The notes under the pieces were generated by a model. That model made no database searches and had not been told where the DNA came from. It worked only from the letters and a program-made list of their open reading frames with translations. A DNA stretch of 61,842 bases, filler included. It is 7 parts of 7 records of this genome, joined end to end, with 100 filler letters (N's around TTAATTAATTAA, not from the genome) between each part and the next. Parts side by side here need not be neighbours in the genome. Positions count along the whole stretch, not along the records: positions 17,813 to 24,432 come from SRR31147125_11026; 6 more parts are not named here. One strand, given 5' to 3'. Shown piece by piece: positions 3,189-58,770 of the stretch. Position 1 is the first letter of the stretch. Every line of letters begins with the position of its first letter. The position numbers were made by a program, and so were the translations under genes.

Positions 3189-3222
3189 AATTATAAGAAT
3201 ATTGCTGGAGGAAACGAGAACG

Positions 3223-4338
3223 ATGCCGTATCCGCAAATAAATCCGGAGGAGATGAAAGTTTATCCTTTGGAATCTCGAAAAAGTAAAAGTCGAATTGAG
3301 GACATTGCCATTGATCCGGAGGCAACCCCGCCTTCACTTTCACCAGAGCTTGAAAAGGCTGTGGATGAGCTTGCTCAACGTGTCATTAAAGCTAAAGAAA
3401 CGGGTGCGTCTGTTATGCTGGCTTATGGCGCTCATTTGATAAAAAATGGTGCCGCTCCACTCCTGGTCAGACTCATGGAAGAGGGGTGGTTGACTCACCT
3501 GGCAACCCAGGGCGCAGGCAGTATCCATGATTGGGAATTCTCTTATCTTGGTCGATCTGAGGAAGATGTTCGGAAAAATGCCCCACAGGGAATTTTTGGT
3601 ACCTGGGAGGAAACAGGTAAATATATCAATTTGGCCGTTCAGGTTGGTGCGATTCGTGGAATGGGATATGGAGAATCTGTTGGTGCTTTGATCCAGAATG
3701 AAGGTTTGGAAATCCCGTCGCAAACCGACCTGGAAACTGAGATTATCGATGGAGTGAAAAAAAATGACGCGTTTATAACCGCCAAGGTTGAACTTTTGGA
3801 AACGATTAAAAAATTCAACCTGAAATCCGGTCCTTTATCCCTTGCGCATAATTTTAAAAAATACTCAGTTCTTGGTAATGCTTTTCGATTAGGAATTCCC
3901 ATGACCATTCATCCGGGAATTGGCTATGATATTATTTATAACAATCCCTATGCCAATGGTGCTGCTCTTGGTCGTGGAGCTCATATTGACTTTAAAGTCT
4001 TTGTCAAATCAGTATCCAATTTGTCTCACGGTGTTTTCATGTCCGTCGGTTCCGCTATTATGGCACCGCAGGTATTTGAAAAGGCTTTCTCTTTTTCGAA
4101 TAACATTAAACTCCAAAAAGGTGACAAAATTGAGGATCATTATATGTTAATTGATGATCTGCAAGAATCTGTCTGGGATTGGACAAAAGGAGAGCCACCA
4201 AAAGAATCACCTGATTATTATTTACGATTTCTGAAATCATTTTATCGTATGGGAGGCACGATACGATATACATCACTTGATAACAGAGCATTACTGCATA
4301 ATTTGTATAAAAAATTAAAAGATATAGCAGGAAGATAA
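3223..4338 (+). CDS. Conserved hypothetical protein, possible deoxyhypusine-synthase-like fold
   Basis: Long ORF with GGAGG RBS. Motifs YGAHLIKNG, HLATQGAGSIHD and SVGSAIMAPQVFEKA loosely resemble DHS-like proteins (inference). Confidence 0.6.
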   Translation: MPYPQINPEEMKVYPLESRKSKSRIEDIAIDPEATPPSLSPELEKAVDELAQRVIKAKETGASVMLAYGAHLIKNGAAPLLVRLMEEGWLTHLATQGAGSIHDWEFSYLGRSEEDVRKNAPQGIFGTWEETGKYINLAVQVGAIRGMGYGESVGALIQNEGLEIPSQTDLETEIIDGVKKNDAFITAKVELLETIKKFNLKSGPLSLAHNFKKYSVLGNAFRLGIPMTIHPGIGYDIIYNNPYANGAALGRGAHIDFKVFVKSVSNLSHGVFMSVGSAIMAPQVFEKAFSFSNNIKLQKGDKIEDHYMLIDDLQESVWDWTKGEPPKESPDYYLRFLKSFYRMGGTIRYTSLDNRALLHNLYKKLKDIAGR

Positions 4339-4474
4339 AAGAATCAACTATGTTTATTTTTGGTATAGGAGGTTTTGCAATTATATTATTTAAGCAATTA
4401 TAAACTGTAAGATTGATTCCATAAATTGTTGTGAATTTTAAAAGTTGCTTTTTCTTACGTGAAAGGAGACGTTT

Positions 4475-7269
4475 GTGAACAACCAAAGCAATGAGAAAAA
4501 AATTATAAATTACATATTATTTCCAATACACACTGGGATCGTGAGTGGGTTTATCCCTTCCAGGAAACAAGATTACTCTTGTTGGATTTTATGGATAATC
4601 TTTTAGATATGCTTGATAGAGATACCGAGTTTCACTCTTTTTTAATGGATTCCCAGACTCTGTGTGTGGAAGATTATTTGGATTTACGTCCTGAAAGAGA
4701 AGAACAGGTTAAGAAGCATGTTCAGTCCGGCAGACTTATTGTCGGTCCCTGGTACTCTTTACCAGAAGAATATATCGTCAATGGTGAATCTCTGGTGCGT
4801 AATCTGGTCGTTGGGCACCGTTTGGCCAAAAAATGGGGTAAAGTAAGTAAAATAGGTTATACTCCATTTTCATACGGACAAACATCACAGATGCCACAAA
4901 TTTATCGCGGATTTGATATTGATACGATTATCTTTTATCGCGGCATCAATACCCCAAAATCTGAATATGTTTTGGAAGGACCGGATGGATCTCGAGTGAC
5001 AGGGTGCCGTTTTGGAGCTTTATCACGTTTTAGTTACTATTTTTATGTATACCGTATGGTAAGATATGGCATGAGCCGTGATGAATGGTGGTATGACTGG
5101 GATCGTGGTGCCTTGCCATTCCGCTTGTGTAATGAACATCATCCGGATGCCCATTATTATACATTGGATCCAAAAGATAAACAATGGAACAAAGATGTCC
5201 TGCCAAAGCAATTGAAAAAATTGGTTGATGATGAAAGTGAACATTTTAGCACATCTCATATTGCTTGTATGCAGGGTTTTGACTCGTCCTCACCGGATTC
5301 ACGTGAACGGGATTTAGTAGAAGCCAGCAAACCTATTTTAAAAGAGATGGGTCATGAAATATATCTGGATTCTCTGGAAAATTTCATGCGCGATATGATG
5401 GAGGAAGTAGAGAATCCTACTGTTCTTAAAGGTGAGAGCCGAAATCCGGGAGCAACCGGAAAGTGGACAAATCTAATGGGTGATGTCATTTCCAGCCGGT
5501 CCCGTCTCAAACGAAGAAACGCTCAAACCGAGACAATCCTGCAACGATGGGCTGAACCTTTTTCCGCCCTTGGATGGGTTGCTGGTGGACAATATATGAA
5601 ATCAGCGATCGATTTGGCCTGGCGTTATTTGTTACAAAATCATCCACACGACACGATTTGTGGCGCCGGAATTGATCAGATGGAAAAAGACATGTATTAT
5701 CGATTCGATCAGGCGACCATTATTTCAAAAGGTGTTATGCGTCGTGGTATGGCCGCAATTCAGAAGCGAATTGACAACACTGATATCGATATCCACGATT
5801 CCGTCGTGACCGTTTTTAATCCCTGTCCATATCCTCGAACAGAAGTTATGACCTTGTTACTGGACTTGCCAGCTAATTGCGAATACGAAGGATTTTCTAT
5901 TCGCGATATGGAAGGCAATGTCATCCCACATGCTGAAACAAAACGGGAACCTTTTGGTACTTTGGTTCGAAATCTGCAGGACATATCCCTGCAGCAGCGT
6001 TCTGATCGAATTACCCTTCATGCTGAATTAGAAAATATTCCGGCATATGGATATAAAACCTATCATATCCGGCATGAAGATAAAGACCTGGAAAAACTGA
6101 CAGTGGGTCTCGGTGATGCTAAAGACGAAGCGATACTTGAAAATGACTATTTAAAAGTCAATATTAATCCGGATGGTAGCTTGAATATGTTAGATAAAGG
6201 GACTGGACGGAATTACGAAAATCAGCATTATTTTGAAGAACAAGGTGAAAGTGGCCACCCGTGGATTCACATGACTCCTGAAGAGGATGAAATAATCACG
6301 ACCCTGGGTAAGGATGCGACTATTGAACATGTAGAAACAAGTCCTCTTTTAACCAGATATAAAGTTACGATTATTATGTCTGTGCCCGAAGGTATGGAAG
6401 GTGAAGAAGGAAATTATCGTCGAACTAAAGCCCGAAAAGATATGACGATCGAATCGATTTTGACCTTACGTAAAGGACAACGCTGGTTGGACGTTGAAAC
6501 AAAATTTGAAAACAACGTTGAGCAGCATCGGGTTCGAGCATGTTTCCCGACCAAATTAAAGGCAGATGTCTCGGCAGCCGAAGCATCCTTTGATGTGATT
6601 GATAGACCTATTGATAGAACTCCGGATAGTTTGTATTATGATAAACCAAATCCACAATATCCCATGCATCGATTTGTGGACATCAGTGACGGAACGAATG
6701 GTTTGGCCTTTATAAACGATGGTATCCGTGAATTTGAGGCTGTGGATAATGAAGAGCGTACACTTTGTATTACACTTGTTCGGGGATTTACAGCCATGCA
6801 ATCACCGGTTATTGATCAATGGGATGTTTATCCATGGATGAAGATGGCGCAATCTCCTGGGATACATGAATATAGATATGCTATTATGCCACATGCTGGA
6901 AATTGGGAAGAAGGCGACGTCTATCGTGAGGCCGACAAGTTTAATCTACCGTTGGAAACAGCGCAGGCCGGTAAAGGTGGGGGTGATTTACCTAAACAAG
7001 CCAGCTTTATTGAGATCGAACCAAAAGAAATTGTCGTCAGTGCTCTGAAAAAATGTGAGATTCGCGATACCCTGGTCATGAGACTTTACAATCCGACAAT
7101 GAAGGAAGTGGCCGGAAGCATCACGTTTTTTAATCCTGTCACAGAAGCATGGTTAACCAACATGGATGAAGAGCGTCGGGAGATCTTGCCAGTTGTGGAT
7201 AAAAGTATTGCCGTTCATTTTGGGCCTAAAAAGATTCAGACTATTGAAGTTGCACTAAAAAATGACTAA
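4475..7269 (+). CDS. GH38 alpha-mannosidase-like glycoside hydrolase (apparent frameshift in A7 run 4496-4502)
   Basis: The main frame from 4501 reads NYKLHIISNTHWDREW (GH38 Zn-binding HxD motif), then GPWY, GESLVRNL and QNHPHDTICG. That frame has TGA at 4492 and no start before the motif, while AGGAG plus GTG 4475 lies in the adjacent frame. Confidence 0.85.
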
Positions 7270-7341
7270 TAAATCAGTGCTTTAGCTTTTTATGTTATTT
7301 TAAGCGCCTTATTAACACATGAAATGGAATGAATTGATGAT

Positions 7342-7384
7342 AATGAATGACCTGTCTTTTTTGACAGGTCATTCATTGTTTTGA
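7342..7384 (+). terminator. Rho-independent terminator-like hairpin
   Basis: Perfect 15-bp stem AATGAATGACCTGTC / GACAGGTCATTCATT with a T6 loop and a following GTTTT, downstream of the GH38 gene. Confidence 0.7.
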
Positions 7385-7540
7385 GAAAAAGGCCGAGTTT
7401 TTTATTTGCCTGATGAGTAAATTAGGTAAAATATTTGGATGTGACGATTTTTTTTATGAAAAAAAGTAATTATATTAAAAGTATATGAAATGTTAAGAAA
7501 ATGTTTTTTTATTATTAATTAGAGTGAAAGGTGAAGAAGA

Positions 7541-11366: not shown

Positions 11367-12440
11367 GTGAAGCATTCTAAAATTATTTTTCTTGTTCTTT
11401 TTGTTGCTCTATATGTTTTATCAATATCTCGATTGTGCTTATCCTTCGATCAAGAAAAGGGCTATTCTTTTACAGACAAGGTCGTACTCGCTTATTATTA
11501 TATTTGGTACCAGGAAAGTTACTGGTTAGATGAACGCAAAGTAGATCTCGATGGACTGCATCCGTTACTTGGTGCCTATAATTCCTGGGATCCGTGGGTT
11601 GTTGACAAACATTTGGCACAGATGCATCGGGCCAAAATCGATGCGATCGCTGTATCCTGGGCGTATAGCCCAAAAGAGAAAGGCCAAAATGGGACTCTGG
11701 ATCATATCTATGAAATTGCTCCAAAATACAACCTGAAAGTCACTATAGATTTTGAGCATGGCCAGGGAACTATGGATGAGATTTATAAAGAGCTTTATTA
11801 TTTTTTAAACCGTTATAAAGATCATCCGGCCATGCTGAAAGTGGAAGGCGATCCGGTAGTAATGATTTGGACCGCATGGGCACACACTCCGAAAGAATGG
11901 CAGGACCTGTTTGATAAACTGGAAGAGGCCGGAATCAAATCCTTTCCCATCATGTCCGGAAGCTATACAAATGGCGAGGGCAAAAAATACCTTGGACCAT
12001 TCAGATCTTTGGAAGAATATACTTTGTGTGATATTGAAGATGGTCAATTGGCCTCTTTTATGCAACGCATGAGAAAACTGGTTGATGAATATAATGAAGA
12101 GACCGGTTTCAAGATCGGTAAACCAGCGCAACATCATGCCACCATTTCTCCCGGTTATGATGAAACACGTCAGGTGGGTCGCAAATTCTCAGGAAACGGC
12201 TGGCTTGGAGCAGGGTGGAAAGATCGGGGTAAATTTGGTGTCAACTATCCTGACGATCCGGTAGGCGCTTATTATAAGGGCACATTTGAAGCGGCCATGA
12301 GTTCAAATCCTGATTGGTTACATATTTCAACATTTAATGAATTATATGAATGGAGTCATATCGAGGCAACCGTTGAATTTGGCTACAAATATATTGATTT
12401 AACTGCCAAATTTGTCGAAGAATTCAAGAAAGCAAAATAA
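11367..12440 (+). CDS. GH99/GH71-like glycoside hydrolase (endo-alpha-mannosidase-like), secreted
   Basis: Signal peptide; VLAYYYIWY, PLLGAYNS, ISPGYDE and ISTFNELYE (GH99 catalytic ExxE, compare SFNEWHE). GGAGG RBS. Confidence 0.7.
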   Translation: MKHSKIIFLVLFVALYVLSISRLCLSFDQEKGYSFTDKVVLAYYYIWYQESYWLDERKVDLDGLHPLLGAYNSWDPWVVDKHLAQMHRAKIDAIAVSWAYSPKEKGQNGTLDHIYEIAPKYNLKVTIDFEHGQGTMDEIYKELYYFLNRYKDHPAMLKVEGDPVVMIWTAWAHTPKEWQDLFDKLEEAGIKSFPIMSGSYTNGEGKKYLGPFRSLEEYTLCDIEDGQLASFMQRMRKLVDEYNEETGFKIGKPAQHHATISPGYDETRQVGRKFSGNGWLGAGWKDRGKFGVNYPDDPVGAYYKGTFEAAMSSNPDWLHISTFNELYEWSHIEATVEFGYKYIDLTAKFVEEFKKAK

Positions 12441-17712: not shown

Positions 17713-17812
17713 NNNNNNNNNNNNNNNNNNNNNNNNNNNNNNNNNNNNNNNNNNNNTTAATTAATTAANNNNNNNNNNNNNNNNNNNNNNNNNNNNNNNN
17801 NNNNNNNNNNNN
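17713..17812. other. Artificial contig linker N44-TTAATTAATTAA-N44
   Basis: An identical 100-nt spacer with stops in all six frames occurs six times. Confidence 0.98.
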
Positions 17813-19997
17813 TTTTTATGAGCCATAAAGTTTGAACAAAAGTTGCTTTAACCCTGTTTGCTGCATTTTTATCGTTGGGATTAATTTCCATTCCCCATTT
17901 AATATTGGTAGTATATTTAAATTTATCAAAGCTCGTTTTATCAATATAATAGCCAACATTTATGTTACCAAAAACATCTATTTTTTGAGAAGATGAAAAA
18001 TCATCACTCTCGCAAACAGCTGTTCTCAATGGATATTCGTAATCATAATCCTCACCAATTAGCGTTGGAACAAATTCATTGCCTCTCAATATTACAAAGT
18101 CTCTATCTTCTAAATAGTCATAAATATTAGAATCAAAACTATCTTCTATATTTTTCAGGTCCAAATTTCTTTTATGAAAACTGACTACTTGAGTATCATT
18201 CAATCCTATTTCGAATGATTTAATTTCAGACCCAACAGATGTGATATAAGCAATATGAGTATTTGAAGTTCCGAAATCAATTCCAAAATAGAATTTAGCA
18301 GAGCTCTTCTTAAGCTCTATTTGTTTGAATCCGGGTAGAATCAGCCCCTTGACCGATGTATTTTCATATCCTACCTGAATCATATCAAATAATTCATTTA
18401 TTCCATAATATAATGAACCTTGGTACTCATTTAAATTTGTTCTCTCTTTGGTTGTTACTATACAAGTTTGTTTTTTTATAACATTTTCAAATTTATAAAA
18501 CTGATATTCAGGAACACCTTCCATTCCTTTTACAACATTTATTTTGTATTTGTTCACCTCGGGTTTATCAACAACCTGGTAAAATGGAAAGATATTCATT
18601 GTCCAACCAATAAAATGCTTATTGTTTTTTACTACATCTTTTTGCAAATCATACGCTTTACTAATTTCCAATGTAGTCTTTCGGGCTGGAATTTTTAATT
18701 TGTAGATTATCTCCGTGTCATTTATTATTATTGACAAATTCTTTTTTAAATCTTTTGATGTGAAATAGTTAAAATATTCTTTTTTTATTGGCAATAAATA
18801 AAATATATCGTCATTCGTTCCACAAAAGAAATTTTCGTTATTAAGCGGATATGGTGTTTTTATAAGTTTTTCTTCGAAAAAATCACCAACTGTTAGGTAT
18901 GGATAAGTTATTTGCTGGTCGCCAGGCAGCTTACGAAGATGTAATGGAGTCTGTGGTATATCGGGAACTTGTGTTGACGGGTCCCATTTTGTTAGTAAAT
19001 ACTTTAAATTGTCATTATATCCCTGAATAAGAACGAGTGGATTTTTAAGTTTTATTTTATTGCCGTTATATGAATAATTCTTGTAATGTTTTACCGTTGG
19101 TTTTATTACAAAATCACTTGTTTTTTCCGGATCAAACCCACCATACATTGTATATAACTTAATTCCTCCGCTTTTAATATGCGCAGGACTACCAAGTTTT
19201 TCTTCTATGGGTGAATATTCATCATTAAATTTTGCTTCATCGTAGTTTTCAAGGGTGTCTCTTAACAAGGAACTAAAATCAATCCCCTGTTTTTCAGCAC
19301 TTAATCGGATATATTCTGAAAATGCATTTGAATTCTGATAAATACTATTTCTGTTAATGTGTTTCAATTTATGAAGGAAAATCTGGAACTCCATATCCCT
19401 TCTGTGTAATGGAGTTGCATTTAATGAAAAGTACTGTTTTGCTTTAGGACTTTTTAATACAATTCCTTTTTCATTCATTAGCCTCACCCAATTTGGAGTT
19501 GTGAAAAGGATCGTGTAAGGAGAAGTTCCACCTACAAGCATACCTTTGTAATATATCATGTATATTTCCCGGTAATCTCTCCATTCTTCAGAATCAAAAT
19601 AAATCCCCAGTGTTTGTGCCAGTATCTTTTGTGAGTCTGCTTTTCTAGGAGAACGAAAATTTTTAAGTCTTTCTCCAATGTTCCATTTTCTGTAGATAAT
19701 CTGAGGATCTGCTCCATGATAAAAGAGGTATTCAAAAAGGTCGAGACAGTGTGAAACGAGCTGGTGATAAACTGTATTGCCACTATGGTTGTTATTGACC
19801 ATCTTAAAGGCAGTTTCGAACAATTGCATCCGTGCAAAAGGATTTGGTATCGATGTGGCAATTTTGGCCGGACTATCTTTTAATAATGTGTCCGTCATTG
19901 TATTTATTGCATCTGCATCAATTTTTTTCGAACGTTCCCAATCTTTTAATATGGAGCTTCCTGTTGTATGCTTTCTAAAAATATATCCGTTACTCAT
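17813..19997 (-). CDS. Large protein with an actin/Hsp70-like ATPase-fold motif (3' truncated by contig end)
   Basis: Likely start MSNGYIFRKH at 19997, 10 nt after the tubulin-like gene stop. N-terminal ATSIPNPFAR and GGTSPYT motifs; YFGIDFGTSNTHIAY matches the Hsp70/actin phosphate-1 loop. Confidence 0.7.
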
Positions 19998-20007
19998 GAT
20001 TAATATT

Positions 20008-21465
20008 TTATGATGGTAGAACTTCAATTCTTTTGTTAAACGCTGATACACAGCTTTCCCATGTCATCCTTAAAAATTGCTCCTCGGGGGCATCTATTTC
20101 CTTTTTCATCAACTCTCTTTGACTTTTAGTCATTGCGGATGTAAAGAAGTCACGTCCGAAACTTTTATCCAGTCCTTTAATAGTTTTGTTGAAAATAATT
20201 TTATTAAAAGTTGAATCAAGATTAAAAGGTAAAAATCCTCTTGAATTTTCACCAAGTTCTTTCATCCATTTATAAAAATGATTACTTAAAAATTCATCCA
20301 TGTTTTTGAAAAAAGGATCTTCATCTTTACGTTTTTTCAAATCGAGTTCTTGTACAAAATCTTTTTCAATATTTTGCGGGATGTGCATAGACCATAATTT
20401 ATAAAATAATGAAAGGTACGTTAAGTTGTGGAAATATTTTTTGTTTGTTTTCTCATAAAAATTAGGGAATGTTAGTCTACTAGCCTCTTCCTTTATCCCA
20501 AATTCGTAATAGTTGGTAATTCCAGGCTGAAAATCGTTATTCTCTTTATTAATAAAATGTATAACACTTAAAGAAGCTAATAATTCAATGACATGTGCCT
20601 TATTTGTCTGTTCTTCTCCTCCTTCATTGTTTTCATACGCATCATCACCAGGTGAATCGCCAATGTAATAGATATCGTTTACTTTACCATCCATGGTGTT
20701 TTCGTAATACGATAAGGCTGCTTTTGTTTTTGAGATAAAGTTCTTAGAGTCGATCGCACTGTTCGAGTCTTCTTTTATGTTAAAATAGGGAGCAACAGGT
20801 ACTGCTCCGATAACCGAATCCCTTATATAGTTATGATTACTCGCGCGAATATTTTCTACGAGTTGTGGAAATCCTGCAGAACCAGTTCCTCCAAAAATTG
20901 ATGATAAAATAAAAATTCTATCGCCTTCGGTAAATACGTCGAGAAAGTATTTGTATTCAGGAGTATTAATAAGGTCATTAAAAACCACACTGCCAACATT
21001 AGGATTTCCCTTAAATCCTTTTGTTAGCCTAAGGTTCAACTCTGTTTTCGGGTTATCCTCCGGGGAGTCATCATATAAGAGTTTTAAAAAGTCCTGATCA
21101 ATACTATCCATATTCCCTCCTTCAAGATACTTGAAGAAAGTATCATTTACATCACCAAACTCAAGGTTAAATTGATCTTTTATCTGCCCTTCTGTGTTAT
21201 TTTGATTGTTAGCTGCTAATGTCACAAGTTCAGCATTAAAGAAACCTTCTTCGTAATCATTCAAGTAAGCCTTACTTCTGATATTACGATATAACTCCAT
21301 TGCCTTTAATGTCCTTACCGTATCTCCATTTTGTATATCAAGATCGATTATTACTGGAATAATTTTCACATCTCTGGGGATTTCAACTCCTGATGCCAAT
21401 AACATTGTAAGTGATCTCAGAATCCTAGATCCTGTTCCACCAATTCCAAAAACAAATACTTTCAT
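20008..21465 (-). CDS. Divergent FtsZ/tubulin-like GTPase (Tubulin_2 / FtsZ-like family), not canonical FtsZ
   Basis: N-terminal FGIGGTGSR, T3-like GFKGNPNVG and tubulin-signature-like SIFGGTGSAG. No NxDFAD T7 loop or FtsZ C-terminal peptide is visible. Confidence 0.85.
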   Translation of the reverse strand: MKVFVFGIGGTGSRILRSLTMLLASGVEIPRDVKIIPVIIDLDIQNGDTVRTLKAMELYRNIRSKAYLNDYEEGFFNAELVTLAANNQNNTEGQIKDQFNLEFGDVNDTFFKYLEGGNMDSIDQDFLKLLYDDSPEDNPKTELNLRLTKGFKGNPNVGSVVFNDLINTPEYKYFLDVFTEGDRIFILSSIFGGTGSAGFPQLVENIRASNHNYIRDSVIGAVPVAPYFNIKEDSNSAIDSKNFISKTKAALSYYENTMDGKVNDIYYIGDSPGDDAYENNEGGEEQTNKAHVIELLASLSVIHFINKENNDFQPGITNYYEFGIKEEASRLTFPNFYEKTNKKYFHNLTYLSLFYKLWSMHIPQNIEKDFVQELDLKKRKDEDPFFKNMDEFLSNHFYKWMKELGENSRGFLPFNLDSTFNKIIFNKTIKGLDKSFGRDFFTSAMTKSQRELMKKEIDAPEEQFLRMTWESCVSAFNKRIEVLPS

Positions 21466-21478
21466 AATTTTTTAGTTT

Positions 21479-21883
21479 TTACCAAGGTGTGTTATGCGCA
21501 TATAGAGTAAAAACTTTGCGCTTAAATAAAATCGAACATAAAAAATAAAAAAGGCATGAATACATAAATACAGATACAGCCAAAAGCCATCCATCACTTT
21601 TAATTGCATCAAAAGGATATAAAATATTCTTAACCCTAACTAGGGCAACAATAAAACTTATTATTCCAAAGGTTAACATATTTACAATCCACCATTGTTT
21701 CCCACTAAAGTTTGGAGTCACCCTGTTTATAACCGAATAAAAGAATAGTGCCCCAATTGCAGAAATACTCAACATAAAAATTGATATTAACGGGAAAACA
21801 TTATCTAAAAACTCAATATCGTGATCAAGATAATTGTAATCCATCACTACCAGAAAATAAAGCTTTTCGAATAAATCATCCAT
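21479..21883 (-). CDS. Small integral membrane protein (about 3 TM helices)
   Basis: Three hydrophobic segments; tightly packed in the operon (6 and 13 nt gaps). Confidence 0.75.
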   Translation of the reverse strand: MDDLFEKLYFLVVMDYNYLDHDIEFLDNVFPLISIFMLSISAIGALFFYSVINRVTPNFSGKQWWIVNMLTFGIISFIVALVRVKNILYPFDAIKSDGWLLAVSVFMYSCLFYFLCSILFKRKVFTLYAHNTPW

Positions 21884-21889
21884 GACAAA

Positions 21890-23323
21890 TTATTTTTTAA
21901 TTATTATTTTTGCATTTACAAATTTGTGTTCTTCATCTCTATATGCTTCCCATATCCCCTCTATAAGGTATTTTAGATTAAATGTAGTTTTTGTTCCTTT
22001 ATCTATATTCAAATCATCATCAGAAGACCATTCCTGATACCATGTTTCAATTTGTGCGTCTAAGACGAGATTAATAACTGATTGATTTGTTGCCATACTA
22101 CTTATCTCTAATTCGACATAGTGTGAATAATCATAAAGTTCATCCTTTGTTGAGTTAGTTGGAATTGAATTACGAAAACTATCAAGGTCTTCAACTTTTG
22201 TAATAGTCGCATCAATCTTTGCGTCATGTATAATTTTCAAATTCTCTTTCAAAAAGTTACTGTTTTGTACAAACTCAGGTAATGATGTAAGATTTAGGCC
22301 GACCGCAAATTTCACAGGTTTACTATTGGGTTCTTCCCTTGCTTCAATCATTTTTGAACGAACCCTGCAATTACGCTCTCTGATATGGTTCCCATACAAA
22401 ATACAATCTGAGACTATATTATTATATACTCCCATATGAATTTCCTCATCAGGTATTGTCATTGAGGACGAATAAAATTTCCCTCTGAAATCAATTAAAA
22501 AATCGGGTCGTCCAAATAGAAAGACATAAAAAGGCCTCTGATTAAATACCTTCTTTACTTTAGAGTTATTATAACAGTAATATGGGAAATCTCCATGTCC
22601 ATTAAAAGGAGCGTAATATGAATACATGGAAATCCCTATTTCTGCTGTTCCAACTATATTACTAACAATATGTGTAATATGACCTTTTAATGCAATCCTG
22701 TTTTGAATATTATAATTTGGATTTTCTTTTATTTGTTTATTCGTACCAGACATTATCCCATCAGTGACAAAGAAACTAACTTCGTTTTCATTTATCTCAC
22801 TCATAATAATTTTAATAATCTCGTTCAATGGAGAATGGCCTGATGGTATTATTTTATTATTTGTAAGCTGGTCTGTAAACACTCTACAGTCCTCATATCT
22901 TTCAATTTCTGCTGCGATAGTTTTAGGGGAAAACTGAATTTCATTATAAATACCATTAATTCCCCAAGCTAATGTATTAATAATATCTGTGAAATTTTTT
23001 TCACCAGTACCTTTAAAGTAACCTCCCATACTAGCTGAAGTCTCTAGATAAAACTTCACTTCACTAACTTCCGGCTTTTTATCCTTTTTAATAGGAGAAA
23101 AAATATCAACCGATTTATCTCTTAAAGTTTCATTTACTAGTGCATCAAATTTGACTGTATCCTTTAGTTCTGAATTTGATTTTATTCTATTATACAAACT
23201 ATAAAACTCAGTCTCTGACAAAGTCCCGTCTTCTGCATAATGAACAATACCCTTTTTCAGGGTACTTTCTGACACATTATTACATGCACAGAACAAGAGA
23301 AATATTACAATAATTTTTTTCAT
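21890..23323 (-). CDS. Lipoprotein with vWA-like domain
   Basis: Lipoprotein-like leader MKKIIVIFLLFCAC; MIDAS-like FYLETSASMGGY and FFVTDG; degenerate EF-hand-like DGTLSETEF. Confidence 0.7.
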   Translation of the reverse strand: MKKIIVIFLLFCACNNVSESTLKKGIVHYAEDGTLSETEFYSLYNRIKSNSELKDTVKFDALVNETLRDKSVDIFSPIKKDKKPEVSEVKFYLETSASMGGYFKGTGEKNFTDIINTLAWGINGIYNEIQFSPKTIAAEIERYEDCRVFTDQLTNNKIIPSGHSPLNEIIKIIMSEINENEVSFFVTDGIMSGTNKQIKENPNYNIQNRIALKGHITHIVSNIVGTAEIGISMYSYYAPFNGHGDFPYYCYNNSKVKKVFNQRPFYVFLFGRPDFLIDFRGKFYSSSMTIPDEEIHMGVYNNIVSDCILYGNHIRERNCRVRSKMIEAREEPNSKPVKFAVGLNLTSLPEFVQNSNFLKENLKIIHDAKIDATITKVEDLDSFRNSIPTNSTKDELYDYSHYVELEISSMATNQSVINLVLDAQIETWYQEWSSDDDLNIDKGTKTTFNLKYLIEGIWEAYRDEEHKFVNAKIIIKK

Positions 23324-24432
23324 GCCAAATAAACATATATTAACAACTATAAAGTCAATTCCAATCTTACACCTCTTCAGAAGTTGTAGTTACCTAAATA
23401 ATAACCTTATACCTATCAAGTAATAGATATCAAATGTTTTCTTGTATTGCTCTGGGGCTGCTCCGAATATCTTCCTGAATTATCTCGTGCTACTGTTTCG
23501 AACTAGCCGGTTACATGGTTAGTATAAAACTAAGGAGAAAATATTGAAAATTCAGAAATAAAACTGATTAGAATAATTCTAAATTAAATCATAGTATCTT
23601 TAAATTCCAACTAAATATCTTAGAACTATATTATTACGATAAATTAACACTTTTAAAATTTTCCATGAATTAGACACTCAGAATCCCAAATAGTACTAGA
23701 CATTATTCGATTATTGAAATACTAGAGGACATCTTAGCCTTACCTGCCTTACCTGAAAATTTAATTAGCCTAAATTTGTAACTCAATAAAAACTTCACGC
23801 TATGATAACTCGTCACTATCTACAAAACATTACAACTTAACTAAACAAAATTAAATCCAGATGGTGCGCGTATGATAATAATGAAATACCTATTGCAGGT
23901 TATAGTCGACAACAAACTACATACAAATCCAATCCATAATAAGAGATACCAACCTGCACCTTGGCTGTAACTGTCTACCTGGCACAATATTAATAGGTCA
24001 TTCAATTGAAACGGGATTATCGTACTAAAATATGCCTTTTTTAACAGGCATGAAACAAATTAATATTATCACTCTTTTTATTCTCATAAAAAAGACGTAA
24101 TTGTTTATATATCAGTAGCATTATATAGCTAATTATAAAACAAACGCTTTTTTTATATACGAGGTCCCCTAGCAAATTCTGAGGAAGCCATACTTTAAGC
24201 ACCGATAGAGTGAATAAAAAAATTGGAAATTCGTACTCAGGAGGGATCTCCTCTTGGAGCTTAGGATAAGACTTGCAGTTTCCTACTCTTTTGCTTGATC
24301 AACCCAGGGAGCTGCAAAGTTTTGGCTCCGACAAAACGCTGTAATGGTTTAGGTGAGGTTCTGGAACATTCATTCTGGGACTTTGATTTATTTACACAAA
24401 GCCCCCTTTCTTTGTGCCATATGGCAGTAGAA

Positions 24433-24532
24433 NNNNNNNNNNNNNNNNNNNNNNNNNNNNNNNNNNNNNNNNNNNNTTAATTAATTAANNNNNNNNNNNN
24501 NNNNNNNNNNNNNNNNNNNNNNNNNNNNNNNN
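24433..24532. other. Artificial contig linker
   Basis: N44-TTAATTAATTAA-N44. Confidence 0.98.
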
Positions 24533-26006
24533 AGGTTAATCGATTTATTCAAATCGGCATCAGAAATTGAACCACCCCCTATTTCGCAAGTCGCTTCGGC
24601 ATAAATCAATAATACTTCTGCGTAACGAATTAGCGGATAATTGTAAGATTCTTCTTTTGTTTCGCGGTTAATATGTTCGGTTATAAATTTACGTCCCTGG
24701 TAACCTAAGTTACGTGCATTTGATGGAGAAGAAAGGTTAGGCACATACGTATAGTCGTAACCAGTACCTGCATCATCGAAAGCAACACCATACTGTGCTC
24801 CGGCACCATTGGTACTGCTACCCCAGCCCCAATATTCTTTTAATGGCTCGCTAACCAAACCAACTAAACGAAGGTCGCGGTTTTGGAACTCATCTTTCAT
24901 AGCACTATAACCTTCGAACAATGGAGAATGCTGCACTGGCAAACCATCGGTACATAAGTACATATCCATTAACTTACGTGTAGGACAGTGTGGTTTTGAG
25001 TGAGTCAAATTCTGATTAATTTGCTTATATGTATAATCATAAACAGTTTGGAAAATATACTCTTTGTTATCGGCCTTTGTAAATCCACCTGGATTCGACT
25101 GTCCATCTTCCAGATTAAAAAGATAAAACATGTGGTTGTTATTGTAATCTTCGCTAAAATCATCACTATAACCGGCTCCCATATCAGCTTGATGGTCCCA
25201 TAATTCGAACAAACCTGTATTCATTACTGCTTCCGCCTGAGTTTTAGCCTCTGAAAACAATTCTGAGGTACTTGGATACCCGGATGGTTTTGTAGAACCT
25301 GCACCTGATGAAGTACCATCGCCATCAAGGTAACTAAGGTCGGCATATTTTTCGTAAGTAGCTTCGAAAAGACAAATACGGGCTTTAAATGCCCTGGCTG
25401 CCTCAACAGAAAGTTTACCGAAATCCTCATCGCTAATACTGCTATGAGAAGGCAGGTAACTTATTGCTACATCTAAATCGCTAAGCATTTGGTAAACTAC
25501 CTCGTAGCGACTGTTTCGTGGTCCGTATAATACTTCCGAGCTTACATCTAACGAACTGGTTACAATTGGCACACCACCAAAGCGGCGTAACAGTTTCCAG
25601 TGGTGCCATGCTCTAAAAAGTAAGCTGCACCTAAATATTCTTGAATTTCAGAAGCATCGCCAGGATATTCTGCCGCTTTTTCAATCAATTGGTTAGCAAC
25701 ACGCATTTGACTGTAGTTGTCTTCCCAAATATCATCGGTTTCTCCGGCAACAGTAGTTCCCTGACCGTAACCCCAATCATAGGTAAGGTTGTTCGATAAA
25801 TCAGAAGTTTCATCTCCATCTTCGAAGCCTAAACGCTTGTAGAAATAGTTTGAAGCATATTCAAACTGATCGGCAGTTTGAAAATAAATTGATTCTGTTA
25901 CTGAATCCTGTGGGTCCTGATCCAAATAGTCTTCACAGCCACTCAGCAAAAAACTTGTAAGGAACAGCACAAAGGCAAATCCTTTTATATATTTTTTCAT
26001 ATTCAT
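24533..26006 (-). CDS. susD: SusD/RagB family glycan-binding lipoprotein (frameshift at A5 25615-25619; 3' truncated)
   Basis: Lipobox LSGC then EDYLD..P. Adding one T gives AYFFRAWHHWKLLRRFGGVPI. Also DL..AI..LP, RDLRL and PLIRYAEVLLIYAEA. Confidence 0.9.
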
Positions 26007-26031
26007 TTTGTGTACTTTTTTTAATTAACGA

Positions 26032-29000
26032 TTAAAATGTAGCTTGTATACCAAATATTAATGCCGACTGGAAGGTTAAGGCATCACCATTGTGTGCATC
26101 TTCGCCATGCTCAGGATCTAATCCATCGGTAATATTCGAGATTACGAATAAATCGTTACCGGTAACAGATAAGCGTAAGTTATCAACTCCAATTTTATCT
26201 AAAATTGGTTTTGGCAGCGTATATCCTAAAGTAATTGCTTTAGCGCGTAAATAAGCAGCTTTAATTACGTTAACATCGTTAGTGTGAGCATAGTTCCAAG
26301 TTTTTCGGCTACCATTATAACCTAAAATTGGAAGTTCTGAATTGGTATTCTCAGGAGTCCAGGTTTTATCCAACCATGATTCGTTTTGTCCCATCCACCA
26401 CGCTTTGAATGGATAAGCCATAGTACCACTACGTACAATGTATTGACGGCCAACACCCTGGAAGAATGCGCTAAAATCAAATCCTTTCCATTCTAATCCA
26501 AGGTTAATACCATAGTTATAATGAGGATTAGCATCGCCATAGTAAACCAGGTCGTCGGTACTGATTATACCATCTTCGTTTACGTCTACCCTGTTTACAC
26601 AATAGGTATCAAACGGTTTGCACTTCGGTAAGAAGGAAGCAATGTACCCGATGCCATAGTGTTTTGGTCTAAAGCATCGGCAAAACCAACTTGGTTATAA
26701 TAATTCAATACTTCGTCTTCAGTTTGGAATAAACCATCAGTTTTGTAAGTATAAATAGCATTTAATGGTTTTCCTTCAATTGGGTCGTCGTTAATACCAT
26801 ACGAGTAATTAACCGCACCGTCCATACGGGTAACTTCGCCTTTACTATCCCAAATATTGAATCCTACGCTGTAGCGCAAGTCACCAATTTTATCTCTCCA
26901 CTTTAAGTCAACTTCCCAACCTTTGTTTTCAAAGTCGCCACTGTTTGTTTTAGGAGCCGAAGCACCCAGTACCTGTGGGTAAGTTATACTAATCAACATG
27001 TCGTTGTTCTTGTTGTTGAAGTACTCAACTGTACCGCTTAAACGACTATCTAAGGCAGCAAAGTCAACAGCAACGTTTGATTTTGCAACACGCTCCCAGC
27101 TACGGTCGGTTGAGGTCATAGAAGAAATATTTGAAGTATTTTGAACTGCCGCACTTGTACCAAAATAAGTTGTTCCGGTACTAATAGTTGAAACGTAGTC
27201 ATAGGCACCAATACCTGTAGTAGATCCCATTTCACCATACGAGGCACGAAGTTTTAAGTTATCAAAAATACCATCTTTTAAGAAGCCCATTTCCGACAAA
27301 CGAATACCGGCAGAAGCACTGTAGAAGTTTTTCCAACGGTAATCAGGATCTAAACGTGAAGAACCATCACGGCGGGCAGAACCCTCTAAAAGGTAAATAC
27401 CTTTGTAATCGTAATTTAACTTACCAATGTACGATACTTGTCCAACAGAAGAACTTCCTGAGTCTTTTGTGTTTGTAGTTGAAAATCCGGCATTTGTCAT
27501 TGTTGAAGCATCACCGGTATTTAAATCGTCCAATTCGTCAGATGCCATATTACTTCGGTACATGTGATATTGCATATTGTCTTGTACCTCAGAGATAGCT
27601 CCTGCCATTACAGCAAAGTTATGATCGCCAAACGAACGACGGTAGTTAGCTTGTACAACGTGGTTTTGGAAAAATACTTTCGACAGATTTACACGAACAT
27701 AGGTTCCAGATGCCGATGGAGATACATTTTCAACATTTCCATCCCAGTCGTATAATGTTACTGTCTTTTTACGCTCGGTATAATCGCTTCTACGGCGGGT
27801 AATATGTGCCTGGTAGTTAAATGATAATCCTTTCACATATTTGTCAAGGTCTAAAATAACTTTACCACCCAAACGAATAGATTCTTGTTCGGTTTCGGTA
27901 CGCCCACCTTCGTTTAACAAGGCAGGAACATTGTTCGCCCACAAGCCATAATATTGTCCGGCAGGATTATAAATTGGATACATTGATGGATTTTGAAGTC
28001 CTTTTCCAATACCCTGTGTAGGTTCATCAATTAACCTATAGTCGTATGCTACGTTAAACTCAGTACTTATCAATTCGTTAACATCATAGGTTACGTTAGT
28101 ACTGAAGTTGTATTTTTTAGCACCATCGTAAACTTCTTCCAAAGCCGAACGCTCGTTGGCATAGCCCAAAGAAGTACGGTAAGTTGCTTTATCGTTACCA
28201 CCCGAAATAGAAAGATTGTGGCGGTGAGAAGTGGTAGTTCCATAAATTTCGTCGTACTGAGTAACATCAGCAAAACGGTGGTCTCTACCAAAAATATAAT
28301 ACGAATCAGGTGCCAATGGGAAAGTACCGTTAGCCAATTCGTAAAATTGATCCTGAGAGAAGAAACGACCGGTAAAACCTGCAGTTTGCATTGCTCCTTC
28401 CGAGTCCATATAATCAATCATATCGTTGGTACCGCCATTGTACCAAAGCTGTGCCCAGTCTGATAGGTTGGCAATTGGTAAGTCGTAGGCAAAATTCAAT
28501 TGAACATCACTCTGGTAATTTACTTTTAGTTTACCTTTTTTACCTTTTTTAGTAGTAATAAGAATTACACCACCGGCAGCTTTTGTACCATAAATGGCAG
28601 CAGCACCATCTTTCAATACCGAGAAAGTTTCAATGTCGTTCGAGTTAAGGGTTGAAAGTTGCCATTCAGGAATTTCCAAACCATCAACAATAATTGTTGG
28701 AGAAATGTTATTTACCGACATATCTCCACGAATTTTAATATCAGTATCTTCGTTACCCGGACGAGCATTGCCCCTGGTAATCTGCACACCATTAACCTCA
28801 CCCTGCATGGCTAAGATAGCATCCGAAGTACTTTTTCCTTTCATTACATCTTCACCTTTAACCTGAGTAACGGCACCGGTAAGTGTGGCTTTCGATTGTG
28901 TACCATAACCTACAACTACCACCTCTTCCAAACCAACTGCGTCGGTTTTTAAGGCTACATTAATTGAAGATTGGTTGCCAACAGTAATTTGTTGCGACAA

Positions 29001-29258
29001 CATACCTACAAATGAAACATTAAGAACACTTTCAGAAGAAAGACCACCTAATGAAAAATTTCCATCAAGGTCGGTAACAGTTCCTTGCGTTGTTCCTTTA
29101 ACAACAACTGTAACACCTGGTAGTGGTTCGTTCTGATCATCTACTACTTTTCCGCTAACTGTTTTTTGCTGAGCATATGCTCCTGCACTAACAGCAACAA
29201 AAAAGAGTGTAAACATTAAAAAGCTTATCGCCTTTTTAATTCTTCTTTTGTTTTTCAT
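26032..29258 (-). CDS. susC: SusC/RagA family TonB-dependent transporter (frameshift near 26600)
   Basis: VSGKVVD..NEPLPGVTVVVKGT, LEEVVVVGYG, VLKDGAAAIYG..AAGGVILITTKKG, RRDGSSR and LKLRASYG. It continues in the next frame as VDVNEDG...GDANPHYNYG and ends in the terminal GIQATF. Confidence 0.92.
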
Positions 29259-30007: not shown

Positions 30008-30107
30008 NNNNNNNNNNNNNNNNNNNNNNNNNNNNNNNNNNNNNNNNNNNNTTAATTAATTAANNNNNNNNNNNNNNNNNNNNNNNNNNNNNNNNNNNNN
30101 NNNNNNN
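30008..30107. other. Artificial contig linker
   Basis: N44-TTAATTAATTAA-N44. Confidence 0.98.
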
Positions 30108-31530
30108 CCTCAGGAGGAGAATAATTAAATCCGTGCAAAACAGAATGATTAATCCCCATGATAAAATTCAGATCATCCGCTCTTTTTATTGTCTCAAGTG
30201 TTGTCTGAAAAACACCCCTGGTATTGGTCATGGCTTCACAACTGGCTATGGACTTACCTGTCAGATGGGCGCCGGAGGACGTGTATTTGTTCCAGATATT
30301 GTAACCATGAGTATACGCATCCGGTGAAAACAACCAGTTATTACTCTCAGGAATATCCGGGATCATAAAACCCTCAGCCATCCCCATCAACCATGGTACC
30401 CCATAAGCCTGATATCTGGATAACGTGCCATGCTCGTGACACCAGTCATGATACGTTTGAGTGAAACGTTCTAAAAAAAGATCCACAAGTGTTTTACTAT
30501 AATCATATCTTACACGCCGGATAATATCGTTAAAGGTGGGATTTTCGCTAGATAATTCCTGATATCCCTTGAAATTATCCTCATAAAAAACAAACGGGAA
30601 ATAAGGAATCAGGTCATAACCGTTCCGTTTCTTGAATTCTTCAAGTATATCAGATGTCCAGTTGGATCCGGCTAATTCGATACTATCGACAAACAAAGCG
30701 CGAATACTTTTACCTAATGGACCACCTAATATTGGCTCTATTGCGTCAGCCAATCGATCACAATACTTGATCACCGCTTTTTTATTATAATGATCTAAAC
30801 AAGGTCCGTCTGCACCAGGTGCGCCATGCATCACCTGGCGAAAAGACTCGCCCGATTCCAGGAATCCCATTACCAGAGTGTAATTACCTGCCGGCACCTG
30901 CACCACAATTCGATTCTCAGCATCTATTTTATCGGTGACATCAACACATTGATCGATACTTTTAATATTTTCAGGTACAAGGCGTATAAAGAGCAGTGGT
31001 GGTATGGGACTGTGCGGATCTACGTTCCTGCCATGCCCACTTTTGTTGTTTGTATGAAAAAAATCATCGAGGCTTCCGGTAAATCGAGATGGTCCTGTCA
31101 GATTCACTGTTTTCAGGATCACACCTTTAATCTGTTCTTCCGGTTGCAGGAACCGTCCGCCAAATGGCCAACCCGTGCCGATAATGATATCAGTTATCAT
31201 ACCGCGGTCTTTAGCACCATCTGCCGCCACCTTGATAATTTGGCTCCATTCCGGGCTGCCCCACATCAGAGATGGCGTGTCTGTTTTGCTGGCCTCTTTC
31301 GGCATGGCAATCGGATTAATCTCGATCCCGCCGATTCCTGCTGATTTCATGACATCCAATTCGCGCAGTATTTCATTTTCAGTTACATTATTCCCATTCC
31401 ACCACCAACGCACAAAAGGTCTTGCACTGGCAGGTGGATTTTTAAAATCTTTGTAAAGGCGATCCTCTGAGCAACCTGTTATTATAAGTAAAACAAGGAA
31501 CAAGCACCACATTATGAATTTTTTAAACAT
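30108..31530 (-). CDS. GH106-like (alpha-L-rhamnosidase family) lipoprotein, 3' truncated
   Basis: Lipobox ITGC; F.NPP..ARPFVRWWWNG, GIGGIEI, GTGWPFGG, FVDSIE, F..R.GYDL and GINHSVLHG. Confidence 0.8.
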
Positions 31531-31733
31531 ACTCAAACTCCCCGAATGTAAAATAGATGGTAATAATATGTTGTTTTACATTAATGAAGCAAGTCGGTAA
31601 GAAAAGCATCCCCCAACCCATAATCCACCCATCCTAAACCGACTTATTTGTTCAGTTCGGTGACAGAATGAATTATAGTATGTTACGTATATCCATTCAA
31701 ACAGTACTTTTGATCTATTATTTCTTCAGCACA

Positions 31734-50661: not shown

Positions 50662-50779
50662 ACCCCCGACTCCTGACTCGGGAACTTAATGAACTTCTGT
50701 ACATATGTAAATACATCTTGCAAAAGTTATATTTTATTTTAAAATTTCATTATAGATAATTACTGAAATGGAGTTGGAC

Positions 50780-52840: not shown

Positions 52841-52864
52841 AATTCTATCTCATAATTCGGAGTA

Positions 52865-55834: not shown

Positions 55835-55857
55835 AATATTCATAAAGGAGAAGCAGG

Positions 55858-58746: not shown

Positions 58747-58770
58747 TTGATCCTTACAAGGAGATTAAAA

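Follow-up and report, generated by a model that had tools for sequence, protein, structure and literature searches.

A conserved Bacteroidota operon that places a predicted tubulin-fold GTPase beside a predicted actin/Hsp70-fold protein and putative envelope proteins

Introduction

Why would a bacterium encode a tubulin-like GTPase directly beside a giant actin/Hsp70-like protein, in one operon with a lipoprotein and a small membrane protein? The question is raised by a single contig (SRR31147125_11026; positions 17813–24432, 6620 bases) of the window, the whole 61,842-nucleotide stretch of DNA analyzed here, in which seven contigs are joined end to end by filler. The operon is the sole occupant of this contig. 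Its four open reading frames (ORFs), named P1, P2, P3 and P4 in gene order, all lie on the minus strand and are separated by gaps of 6, 13 and 10 nucleotides. A sequence-only reading of the same DNA had described these four co-oriented genes with gaps of 6–13 nucleotides, and both this layout and the motifs it quoted were recovered, the latter in the sequences of P1, P3 and P4. That reading had gone on to propose a trans-envelope system in which a lipoprotein with a domain of the von Willebrand factor A (vWA) type is linked to the two cytoplasmic proteins, for membrane remodeling or biological conflict.

The region in the window comprises genes one to four of an operon that is conserved in Bacteroidota and has five or more genes, and we hold its anatomy and the family assignment of its products with high confidence. 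The best explanation overall, to which we give somewhat better than an even chance, is that the operon is a short-GTPase variant of the FtsZl1-vWA ‘membrane remodelling’ systems, partnered by a protein of the acetate and sugar kinase/Hsp70/actin (ASKHA) fold. Such systems are known as a kind, though uncharacterized; what is notable here is the natural coupling, in some lineages the fusion, of a tubulin-fold and an actin-fold nucleoside triphosphatase (NTPase).

Conservation, fusion and distribution of the operon

Gene order: Homologs of P3 number more than 4511 at E ≤ 0.001, the closest being 52% identical, and an alignment-based scan of a one-genome-per-species collection returned 397 P3-matching stretches. 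The best 80 of these 397 stretches form the set of loci used throughout, and all 80 are from Bacteroidota. BLASTP among them finds P1 in 75 and P4 in 74. Clustering puts P1 two genes upstream of P3 in 73 of 79 cases and a small transmembrane (TM) protein immediately upstream in 68 of 79; downstream of P3, P4 comes first in 64 of 77 and second in six more. An ORF of 118–161 residues separates P1 from P3 in every locus that has both (75 of 75), and 70 of these ORFs form one cluster. A fifth gene, P5, is present in 62 loci and occupies the second position downstream of P3 in 51 of the 72 loci with a gene there. The genes beyond it vary, and encode trypsin-like peptidases as well as WG-repeat, SH3, discoidin-type, tail-anchored and 3-TM proteins. 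Because the same gene order recurs in 73–75 of the 80 related loci, the P1–P4 arrangement is far beyond chance; the four-gene synteny, whose absence from other genomes the sequence-only reading had named as grounds for abandoning its proposal, is kept elsewhere.

Natural fusions: P3 and P4 are neighboring genes that several lineages have joined into a single polypeptide. Two Cytophagales assemblies (L009 and L010) hold both in a single ORF of 1623 or 1641 residues, and longer relatives of P3, of 1197–1694 residues, make up 69 protein clusters. In the two of these 69 clusters that were checked, the P4 part directly follows the P3 part; compared with the P4 of the window, one fusion is 32% identical (E 8e-100) and the other, from a Paludibacteraceae record, 25%. 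The fusion is the strongest evidence that both NTPases work as one unit. A prediction of the complex between full-length P3 and residues 1–515 of P4, in which alignments were not used, gave a score of 0.00 and speaks neither for nor against binding.

Distribution and inheritance: Among 201 sampled genomes of the family to which the Dyadobacter genome belongs, a P3 match at E ≤ 1e-20 was found in 82, a count from which incomplete genomes may hide some copies. Within the Spirosomataceae, P3 matches fall into two score classes, of ~690–750 and ~350–430 bits, which suggests two operon subfamilies. The P3 tree mostly tracks taxonomy, with eight label changes against a minimum of five and a mean of 23.4 for shuffled labels, and its within-genus branches are very short. 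The P3 of the window groups with two Bacteroidales assemblies and one Flavobacteriaceae assembly, with support of 93–95 in the Shimodaira–Hasegawa-like approximate likelihood-ratio test (SH-aLRT). Dyadobacter copies group with Chitinophagaceae and Pedobacter, not with other Spirosomataceae, and this placement in the tree suggests at least one transfer of the operon between orders.

P3, a predicted tubulin/FtsZ-superfamily GTPase

P3 (positions 20008–21465, minus strand; 485 residues) is assigned to the tubulin/FtsZ superfamily, as a cytoplasmic GTPase of the Pfam Tubulin_2 kind, by a profile match and a fold model; P3 and its relatives are 466–527 residues long. It scores 27.2 bits against Tubulin_2 (PF13809; cut-off 27) over residues 179–229, the T4 region, and in the T4 region only it reaches 22.6 bits against Pfam Tubulin, under the cut-off of 33. 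NCBIfam and PADLOC contain no match for P3. In precomputed tables, PF13809 is present in most of the 120 listed P3 homologs.

The structural model of P3, built from 20 sequences, has a predicted local distance difference test score (pLDDT) of 82.3 and a predicted template modeling score (pTM) of 0.87. It was compared with VIA against 48,161 PDB representative chains, and the 17 best matches all belong to the tubulin/FtsZ family, led by CetZ (Z 16.2 over 200 residues, root-mean-square deviation (rmsd) 3.0) and FtsZ (Z 16.1); OdinTubulin (Z 15.8), tubulin (Z 14.9), PhuZ and TubZ are among the further matches. The best unrelated folds are Rossmann-fold dehydrogenases, at Z ≤ 9.9. Foldseek agrees weakly (FtsZ, E 5.3e-4). 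Judged by this model, P3 has the fold of the tubulin/FtsZ GTPase domain, the outcome that the sequence-only reading had anticipated. The matches extend from residue 1 to residue ~340, and residues 338–480 are modeled as a compact helical region without a long coiled coil.

The nucleotide-binding loops expected of this fold can be located along the gene. The T1 loop GIGGTG (residues 7–12; positions 21430–21447, minus strand) has G9, G10, T11 and G12 invariant in 20 sequences, and all six of its positions are at least 80% conserved in 81 sequences. The T3-like loop GFKGNPNVG (residues 150–158; 20992–21018, minus strand) is invariant in 20 sequences save at position 157, and the T4 signature FGGTGSAG (residues 191–198; 20872–20895, minus strand) is invariant in the same number save at positions 196 and 197. 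Across the 81 members, the near-invariant elements read GIGGTG (T1), GFKGNPN-G (T3-like), SSIFGGTGS-GFPQL (T4) and PYF (T5). A weak hhalign alignment with an FtsZ profile, taken from genomes that also hold the operon, puts T3, T4, T5 and helix H7 in register, with GFKGNPNVG on the GAG-NP of FtsZ and T4 on GGGTGTG.

The place equivalent to the T7 loop, after helix H7, shows no such conservation. At residues 306–318 of P3 (20512–20550, minus strand), the commonest residue stays below 80% at every position and below half at nine of the thirteen in the 81 sequences, among which N-x-D-x-x-D/E is not kept in this segment. P3 is thus without a conserved T7 catalytic loop, as had been noted from the sequence, and has a helical domain in place of the C-terminal domain of FtsZ.

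A role for P3 as the division FtsZ was considered and rejected. Each of the five operon-bearing genomes examined encodes a separate, canonical FtsZ above the TIGR00065 cut-off and has one P3 match, and P3 itself has no NCBIfam match.

P4, a giant protein with a predicted ASKHA domain

The window holds the first 728 residues of P4 (positions 17814–19997, minus strand), a protein of ~1150 residues whose 3′ end is open at the contig end. Full-length relatives measure ~1030–1260 residues in the 80 loci, and the 120 listed database relatives measure 1074–1233 residues, one 435-residue fragment aside. All of those listed are named ‘hypothetical’ bar one from one database source, which is called ‘cell division protein FtsA’. 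No library among Pfam, PADLOC and NCBIfam names P4, and its sequence gave nothing meaningful against PDB chains.

For the fold model, the full-length protein nearest to P4 among genome records was taken (L001; 1151 residues, 39% identical); built with 47 sequences, the model has pLDDT 82.5 and pTM 0.74. Residues 573–1014 of this relative match MreB (Z 18.7 over 280 residues, rmsd 3.7), ParM (17.6) and the Hsp110 nucleotide-binding domain (17.3), followed by PilM and BeeR (16.9 each) and FtsA (16.3); Foldseek places the model against DnaK at E 1.1e-8. As modeled, the second half of P4-family proteins has the actin/Hsp70 (ASKHA) fold, in line with the earlier assignment. These scores do not discriminate between actin-like and Hsp70-like readings. 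Against viral structures, Foldseek returned only generic Hsp70 and actin-like matches.

About the first 155 residues of this domain lie inside the window (residues 571–728; 17814–18287, minus strand); its remainder and the downstream genes are past the contig end. The part present carries the phosphate-1 motif GIDFGTSNT (residues 573–581); its D574, F575, G576 and T577 do not vary among 59 sequences. Homologs also conserve a phosphate-2 (D-I-G-G-G-T) and an adenosine (G-K-G-S) motif, at places beyond the end of this contig. None of the curated Pfam families HSP70, MreB_Mbl, FtsA and Actin matches P4 above threshold. Below threshold, the P4 family matches FtsA, MreB, EutA and MutL, and Ppx-GppA reaches its cut-off of 27 in a single member (P0224, 27.5 bits).

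Near the N-terminus, residues 45–64 (19806–19865, minus strand; ..SIPNPFARMQLFETAF..) form a conserved peptide, SIPxPFAR-LF-TAF, with P51, P53 and R56 invariant in 59 sequences. The stretch is modeled as disordered, pLDDT being below 50 at residues 1–52 of the L001 model. The same peptide is kept in the distant fused proteins, directly after the P3 part.

P1, P2 and P5, the putative envelope components

P1 (positions 21890–23323, minus strand; 477 residues) opens with a hydrophobic N-terminus and has a lipobox cysteine, Cys14, that is invariant in 42 homologs and near-invariant in 98; with these two features it is taken to be a lipoprotein, as the sequence-only reading had it. Its N-terminal domain resembles a vWA domain with a metal ion-dependent adhesion site (MIDAS), the motifs being LETSASM and FFVTDG. 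The canonical vWA MIDAS reads DxSxS ... T ... D. In P1, loop 1 (E-T-S-A-S-M, residues 94–99; 23027–23044, minus strand) and the V-T-D-G (residues 186–189; 22757–22768, minus strand), equivalent to the ‘TDG’ MIDAS aspartate of vWA strand β4, occupy the corresponding places. S96, S98, S164 and D188 are invariant in the 42 homologs, and D188 is near-invariant in the 98. Compared with the canonical site, most members have Glu for the first Asp, and Ser stands for Thr; loop 1 reads D-I-S-G-S-M in the homolog of L076 and E-N/V-S-G-S-M in mobile-element copies.

The spacings between these elements, 66 and 24 residues, are close to the 69 and 28 of an alignment (A5) of eight BatA-like vWA proteins from the same genomes. 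In hhalign, a 98-sequence P1 profile from a search of representatives (A7) meets A5 over 135 columns with all three MIDAS elements in register (E 3.2e-4), the P1 loop aligning to D98-S100-S102-M103 and D188 to D199-G200. The 150 best listed matches of the P1 profile among 1.84 billion representatives are all close family, none linking it to named vWA proteins, and the window’s P1 itself has neither a Pfam match nor a PDB sequence match. Taken together, motif order, spacing and profile alignment indicate that P1 probably carries a divergent vWA/MIDAS domain. The plain vWA label of the sequence-only reading was over-confident.

P2 (positions 21479–21883, minus strand; 134 residues) is a predicted small inner-membrane protein, in which a hydrophobicity scan finds the three TM segments that had been proposed for it. 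P5 lies after P4 in relatives, and has ~400 residues; it combines a signal peptide with a single TM helix at its center, a stretch resembling a coiled coil and a C-terminal domain that is conserved, and from these features it is predicted to be a bitopic membrane protein. Its comparison with PDB chains gave weak coiled-coil-like matches only. No TM helices are predicted in P3 or P4.

Genomic context and mobile-element copies

Chromosomal loci: The flanks of 15 chromosomal loci yielded a list of 165 ORFs of at least 110 residues, of which 100 were scanned and the others set aside by hand. The scanned proteins are mostly housekeeping or metabolic, such as NadA, transketolase, MgtE, an RsmA-type methylase and TonB receptors, and there is no integrase among the 100. 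The upstream context is common to several genera. In a search of PADLOC-DB 2.0 (5027 models) at E ≤ 1, none of the four operon proteins has a match. Exceptions to the housekeeping pattern occur at L005, where a TIR protein is accompanied by a caspase-like peptidase and an HSDR_N protein, at L070, with a further HSDR_N protein, and at L077, with an HNH protein. At L005 (Chitinophagaceae; 2974–7515), the caspase-like Peptidase_C14 gene stands directly upstream of P1 on the same strand, and further upstream, on the opposite strand, are the TIR-domain gene and a two-component pair. In an Arsenicibacter assembly (L017; 11547–12116), P3 is parted from P4 by a gene for an IS200-type (Y1_Tnp) transposase; the close relatives L020 and L027 have a similar P3–P4 gap of ~0.7–0.8 kb.

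Mobile elements: In a scan of IMG/VR, nine loci were found, from about five distinct elements, and in all nine P1, the small TM protein, P3 and P4 follow in order. Integrases are directly upstream in L099 and L102, and in L100 by a shared gene map. MobA/VirD2 relaxases occur in L099 and in L105, where portal proteins and minor head proteins are also encoded. An excisionase is found with replication genes in L098, a tail fiber gene with a methyltransferase in L103, and a helicase with a non-specific endonuclease in L104. After the P4 of L099 (15546–16952) come a MotB_plug protein (26 bits, cut-off 24) and an OmpA-like protein below threshold, genes that recall the OmpA link of FtsZl1 systems (PMC2875224). 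The IMG/VR copies branch outside the clade to which the window’s copy belongs, a group of 38 genome copies with full support. The module thus exists in two settings, as a stable operon of chromosomes and as cargo of integrative or phage-like elements.

Proposed mechanism and alternative explanations

The mechanism that we propose starts from the two NTPases. P3 and P4 would act as one cytoplasmic GTP-plus-ATP unit, comparable to the FtsZ–FtsA pair; P2 and P5 would tether this unit to the inner membrane and, through them, it would be coupled to the periplasmic domain of P1, whose MIDAS-like site, probably of MIDAS type, would bind a ligand in a metal-dependent manner. The missing T7 loop makes P3 more likely a partner-regulated switch or an atypical assembly than a self-activating, FtsZ-like polymer. 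As an envelope-spanning GTP/ATP machine, the operon is a tentative picture, which we place a little short of an even chance. A further proposal, which we regard as doubtful, makes P3–P4 a composite NTPase, in which a GTPase without self-activation is switched or polymerized by its ASKHA partner, within a transferable, envelope-spanning machine with a MIDAS lipoprotein and membrane tethers, by which Bacteroidota and their mobile elements would reshape or guard the envelope.

Several observations weigh against reading the operon as an FtsZl1-like, envelope-spanning system. The P3 score for PF13809 is exactly at the threshold and covers 51 residues, and the hhalign comparison of P3 and FtsZ profiles gives Prob 1.9% and E 0.026. 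At 485 residues P3 falls well short of the ~1000 of FtsZl1, and it has no extended coiled coil. In P4, the fold match covers residues 573–1014, and what the window holds is mostly the N-terminal ~570 residues outside that domain. The hhalign match of P1 to vWA proteins has a Prob of only 38.8%, falling to 0.2% with the shallower 42-sequence profile, and no Pfam VWA family is found in any of 42 P1 members at E ≤ 1. The contig is AT-rich, as had been remarked (GC content 0.319, against 0.389–0.422 in the other six contigs), and its tetranucleotide correlation with those contigs is 0.81; this low-GC contig may be foreign or horizontally acquired DNA, or may have been wrongly binned. The coupling of periplasm to cytoplasm, a reasonable proposal when the sequence-only reading made it, draws on predicted topology as its sole basis, and the contacts, nucleotide binding and assembly of the operon proteins stand as predictions.

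The rival explanation that deserves most space concerns the role of the module, not its anatomy. It holds that the operon is a defense or exclusion system against phages and mobile DNA, carried as mobile cargo, in which an envelope sensor is coupled to NTPases that block entry or trigger a response; we rate it as rather unlikely. The full P1–P2–P3–P4 module in nine of nine IMG/VR loci, with integrases, relaxases, an excisionase and phage genes beside them, speaks for such a role, and so do the patchy spread (82 of 201 genomes in one family), the suggested between-order transfer of the Dyadobacter copies, the variable downstream genes with their trypsin-like peptidases, the caspase-like peptidase, TIR and HSDR_N genes near the L005 operon, and the outlying GC content of the operon contig. 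Set against this, PADLOC models match none of the four proteins, the chromosomal flanks are mostly housekeeping or metabolic and free of integrases among the 100 proteins from 15 loci, the gene tree largely tracks taxonomy with very short within-genus branches, and several genera share an upstream context. The core genes, moreover, include no nuclease, pore-forming or NADase effector, and the mobile-element copies fall outside the well-supported clade with the window’s copy. Biological conflict, one of the two roles suggested from the sequence, thus draws some support from copies on phage-like contigs and on contigs with integrases or relaxases, and none from PADLOC or from the chromosomal flanks, which are mostly housekeeping. 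Overall, carriage by mobile elements, the patchy spread, the changing downstream genes with their proteases and the unusual GC content of the contig favor exclusion or defense, and vertical inheritance and housekeeping neighbors favor a role in envelope remodeling or maintenance.

Two further alternatives concern the NTPases themselves. If P4 were an Hsp70-type chaperone, the system might fold, export or assemble P1, much as in MoxR–vWA pairs; there is precedent for an NTPase chaperone paired with a vWA protein (PMC7824862). DnaK, BiP and Hsp110 are indeed the top Foldseek matches of P4, and its phosphate-1 and phosphate-2 motifs (IDFGTSNT and DIGGGT) resemble those of Hsp70. By Z-score, however, MreB and ParM do slightly better than Hsp70, no Hsp70 substrate-binding domain is recognized and no Pfam HSP70 match occurs in the members scanned. 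P1 is moreover predicted to be exported and P4 to be cytoplasmic, and the obligatory tubulin-like partner and the fusion are left unexplained, so we find a chaperone role very improbable. An even smaller chance is given to P3 and P4 being a DNA-partition or positioning system of a mobile element, like TubZ or ParM, with the envelope genes as unrelated cargo. The linkage of P1 and P2 to P3 and P4 is as tight as that between P3 and P4 themselves, and most copies occur singly in chromosomes with housekeeping neighbors. P3 does not conserve the T7 loop required by TubZ-type polymers, and the gene maps brought no small DNA-binding adaptor gene to notice, though no search aimed at adaptors was made. 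What speaks for partition is that TubZ, PhuZ and ParM are among the structural matches and that some copies sit on elements with integrase, relaxase or replication genes. The short-GTPase, ASKHA-partnered variant of the FtsZl1-vWA systems remains the reading that we favor.

Other features of the window

The seven contigs are joined by six identical linkers, each of the form N50-TTAATTAATTAA-N50 (an N-run, TTAATTAATTAA and a second N-run), at 17713–17812 and 24433–24532 and also at 30052, 39220, 45067 and 50485. Neighborhood across the joins is meaningless, and genes outside 17813–24432 are not neighbors of the operon, since the window is made of joined contigs. The remark in the sequence-only reading that the contig has no cell-division genes carries no weight for the same reason: the window is not one molecule, and seven contigs had been misread as one.

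Upstream of P1, an AT-rich stretch of 1.1 kb (23324–24432, no strand assigned; GC content 0.327) runs to the contig end without a long ORF, its stop-to-stop ORFs being at most 85 residues. Such a length is unusual between bacterial genes, and the stretch stops at the contig break. A promoter presumably lies within it. No Rfam match was found there at E ≤ 0.1, and Rfam and repeat scans of the operon contig as a whole gave nothing notable.

Among the contents of the other contigs are SusC/SusD-type genes, glycoside hydrolases and sorting domains for type IX secretion, which place the assembly in the Bacteroidota. On the adjoining contig, 24532–29258 holds a SusD-like gene and a gene for a SusC-like TonB-dependent receptor. 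Glycoside hydrolases GH38, GH99 and GH106 lie on further contigs, at 4579–7269, 11367–12440 and 30110–31536. Four tandem genes at 50768–61659 encode proteins of 690–989 residues, three with type IX C-terminal sorting domains and two with PKD domains, and 40059–43151 encodes a 1030-residue protein with an FGE-sulfatase-like domain and leucine-rich repeats.

Significance

Within open-access papers and bioRxiv, no account of this operon, of a tubulin–ASKHA fusion or of FtsZl1 experiments was found. If P3–P4 is truly composite, it would be the first natural fusion of the tubulin and actin folds described within that literature. Pedobacter, Chitinophaga and Dyadobacter are among the cultivable genera that have the operon, and the natural fusions define the partner of the GTPase genetically. 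In a common operon with cultivable hosts and a genetically defined partner, three questions therefore become directly testable: what role tubulin-fold proteins without a T7 loop play, whether a tubulin-fold and an actin-fold NTPase can be one working unit, and whether such systems are envelope-remodeling devices or conflict cargo of mobile elements.

Comparison with known systems

Segregation filaments: The operon shares its folds with TubZ/PhuZ and ParM/AlfA, and like them is carried in some copies on mobile elements. It differs in having both folds in one module, in its obligatory envelope proteins and in being mostly chromosomal. Unlike TubZRC and ParMRC, its gene maps show no conserved small extra gene besides P2, no dedicated search for an adaptor or centromere having been made.

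SrfABC: SrfB (PF07520), from the SsrB-regulated factor operon, is, like P4, a large protein, and its profile has an ASKHA phosphate-2-like motif. According to 10.64898/2026.09.18.752743, SrfA is bitopic and vWA genes flank the SrfABC operon. A protein-language-model search put the N-terminal region of P4 near a cluster with SrfB in 19% of its members (score 0.82), which serves as a lead only. Among 30 P4 proteins scanned, none attains the SrfB threshold; the best match (E 0.22; 9.9 bits against 27.1) occurs in one of them. Weak SrfB-profile matches were found beside ftsZ in four of five genomes, in frames of 435–475 residues with the size and place expected for ftsA. A specific kinship of P4 with SrfB was accordingly rejected: in these four of five genomes the best weak SrfB match adjoins ftsZ, not P4, and only the ASKHA motif is shared.

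FtsZ–FtsA: In this pair, a tubulin-fold GTPase is tethered to the membrane by an actin-fold ATPase. In the operon, too, the gene for a tubulin-fold NTPase adjoins one for an actin-fold NTPase, the structural matches of P4 include FtsA (Z 16.3), one P4 homolog is named FtsA in a database, and a conserved short peptide adjoins the P3–P4 junction. The differences are that canonical ftsZ is kept in five of five operon genomes, that P3 has no T7 loop, that P4 is three times as large as FtsA and has an N-terminal region of ~570 residues, and that P3 and P4 are fused in several lineages and linked to a lipoprotein.

FtsZl1-vWA: The closest parallel is with the membrane-remodeling systems predicted by Makarova and Koonin in 2010 (PMC2875224). 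FtsZl1, as described there, is a protein of ~1000 residues with an FtsZ-like domain at its N-terminus, an extended coiled coil and a helical C-terminal domain; it has no recognizable T6–H7 region, and is found in the context of vWA, OmpA-like, P-loop GTPase, kinase and membrane proteins. Supplementary file 5 includes a Magnetospirillum magneticum FtsZl1-vWA cluster (amb2957–amb2961) with three vWA genes and a terminal gene for a DnaK-like COG0443 protein of 1626 residues, and its Bacteroides entries are only proteins of 913 and 1103 residues in other contexts. The M. magneticum DnaK-like gene, the sole sign of an ASKHA partner in that work, may be the equivalent of this partner in proteobacteria, and the paper’s text is silent on it. 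A 2023 survey (PMC9871819) treats Tubulin_2 proteins only as a divergent outgroup and sets them aside.

Apart from the length and coiled-coil differences weighed above, the operon departs from these systems in three ways. The partner of P3 is a giant ASKHA ATPase, absent from the text and family table of PMC2875224; no P-loop GTPase or protein kinase was seen in the operon core; and the vWA candidate, P1, is a lipoprotein missed by every Pfam VWA model. The likenesses are that P3 is a highly diverged FtsZ/tubulin GTPase with an unrecognizable T6–H7/T7 region, that it is encoded besides canonical FtsZ, and that its operon includes a probable vWA protein and membrane proteins, with OmpA/MotB-like genes in some relatives. 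The link to the FtsZl1/vWA class that had been drawn from the sequence is borne out by this literature and by the Tubulin_2 match at its threshold, and the operon represents a compact and very common version of the FtsZl1-type systems predicted in 2010.

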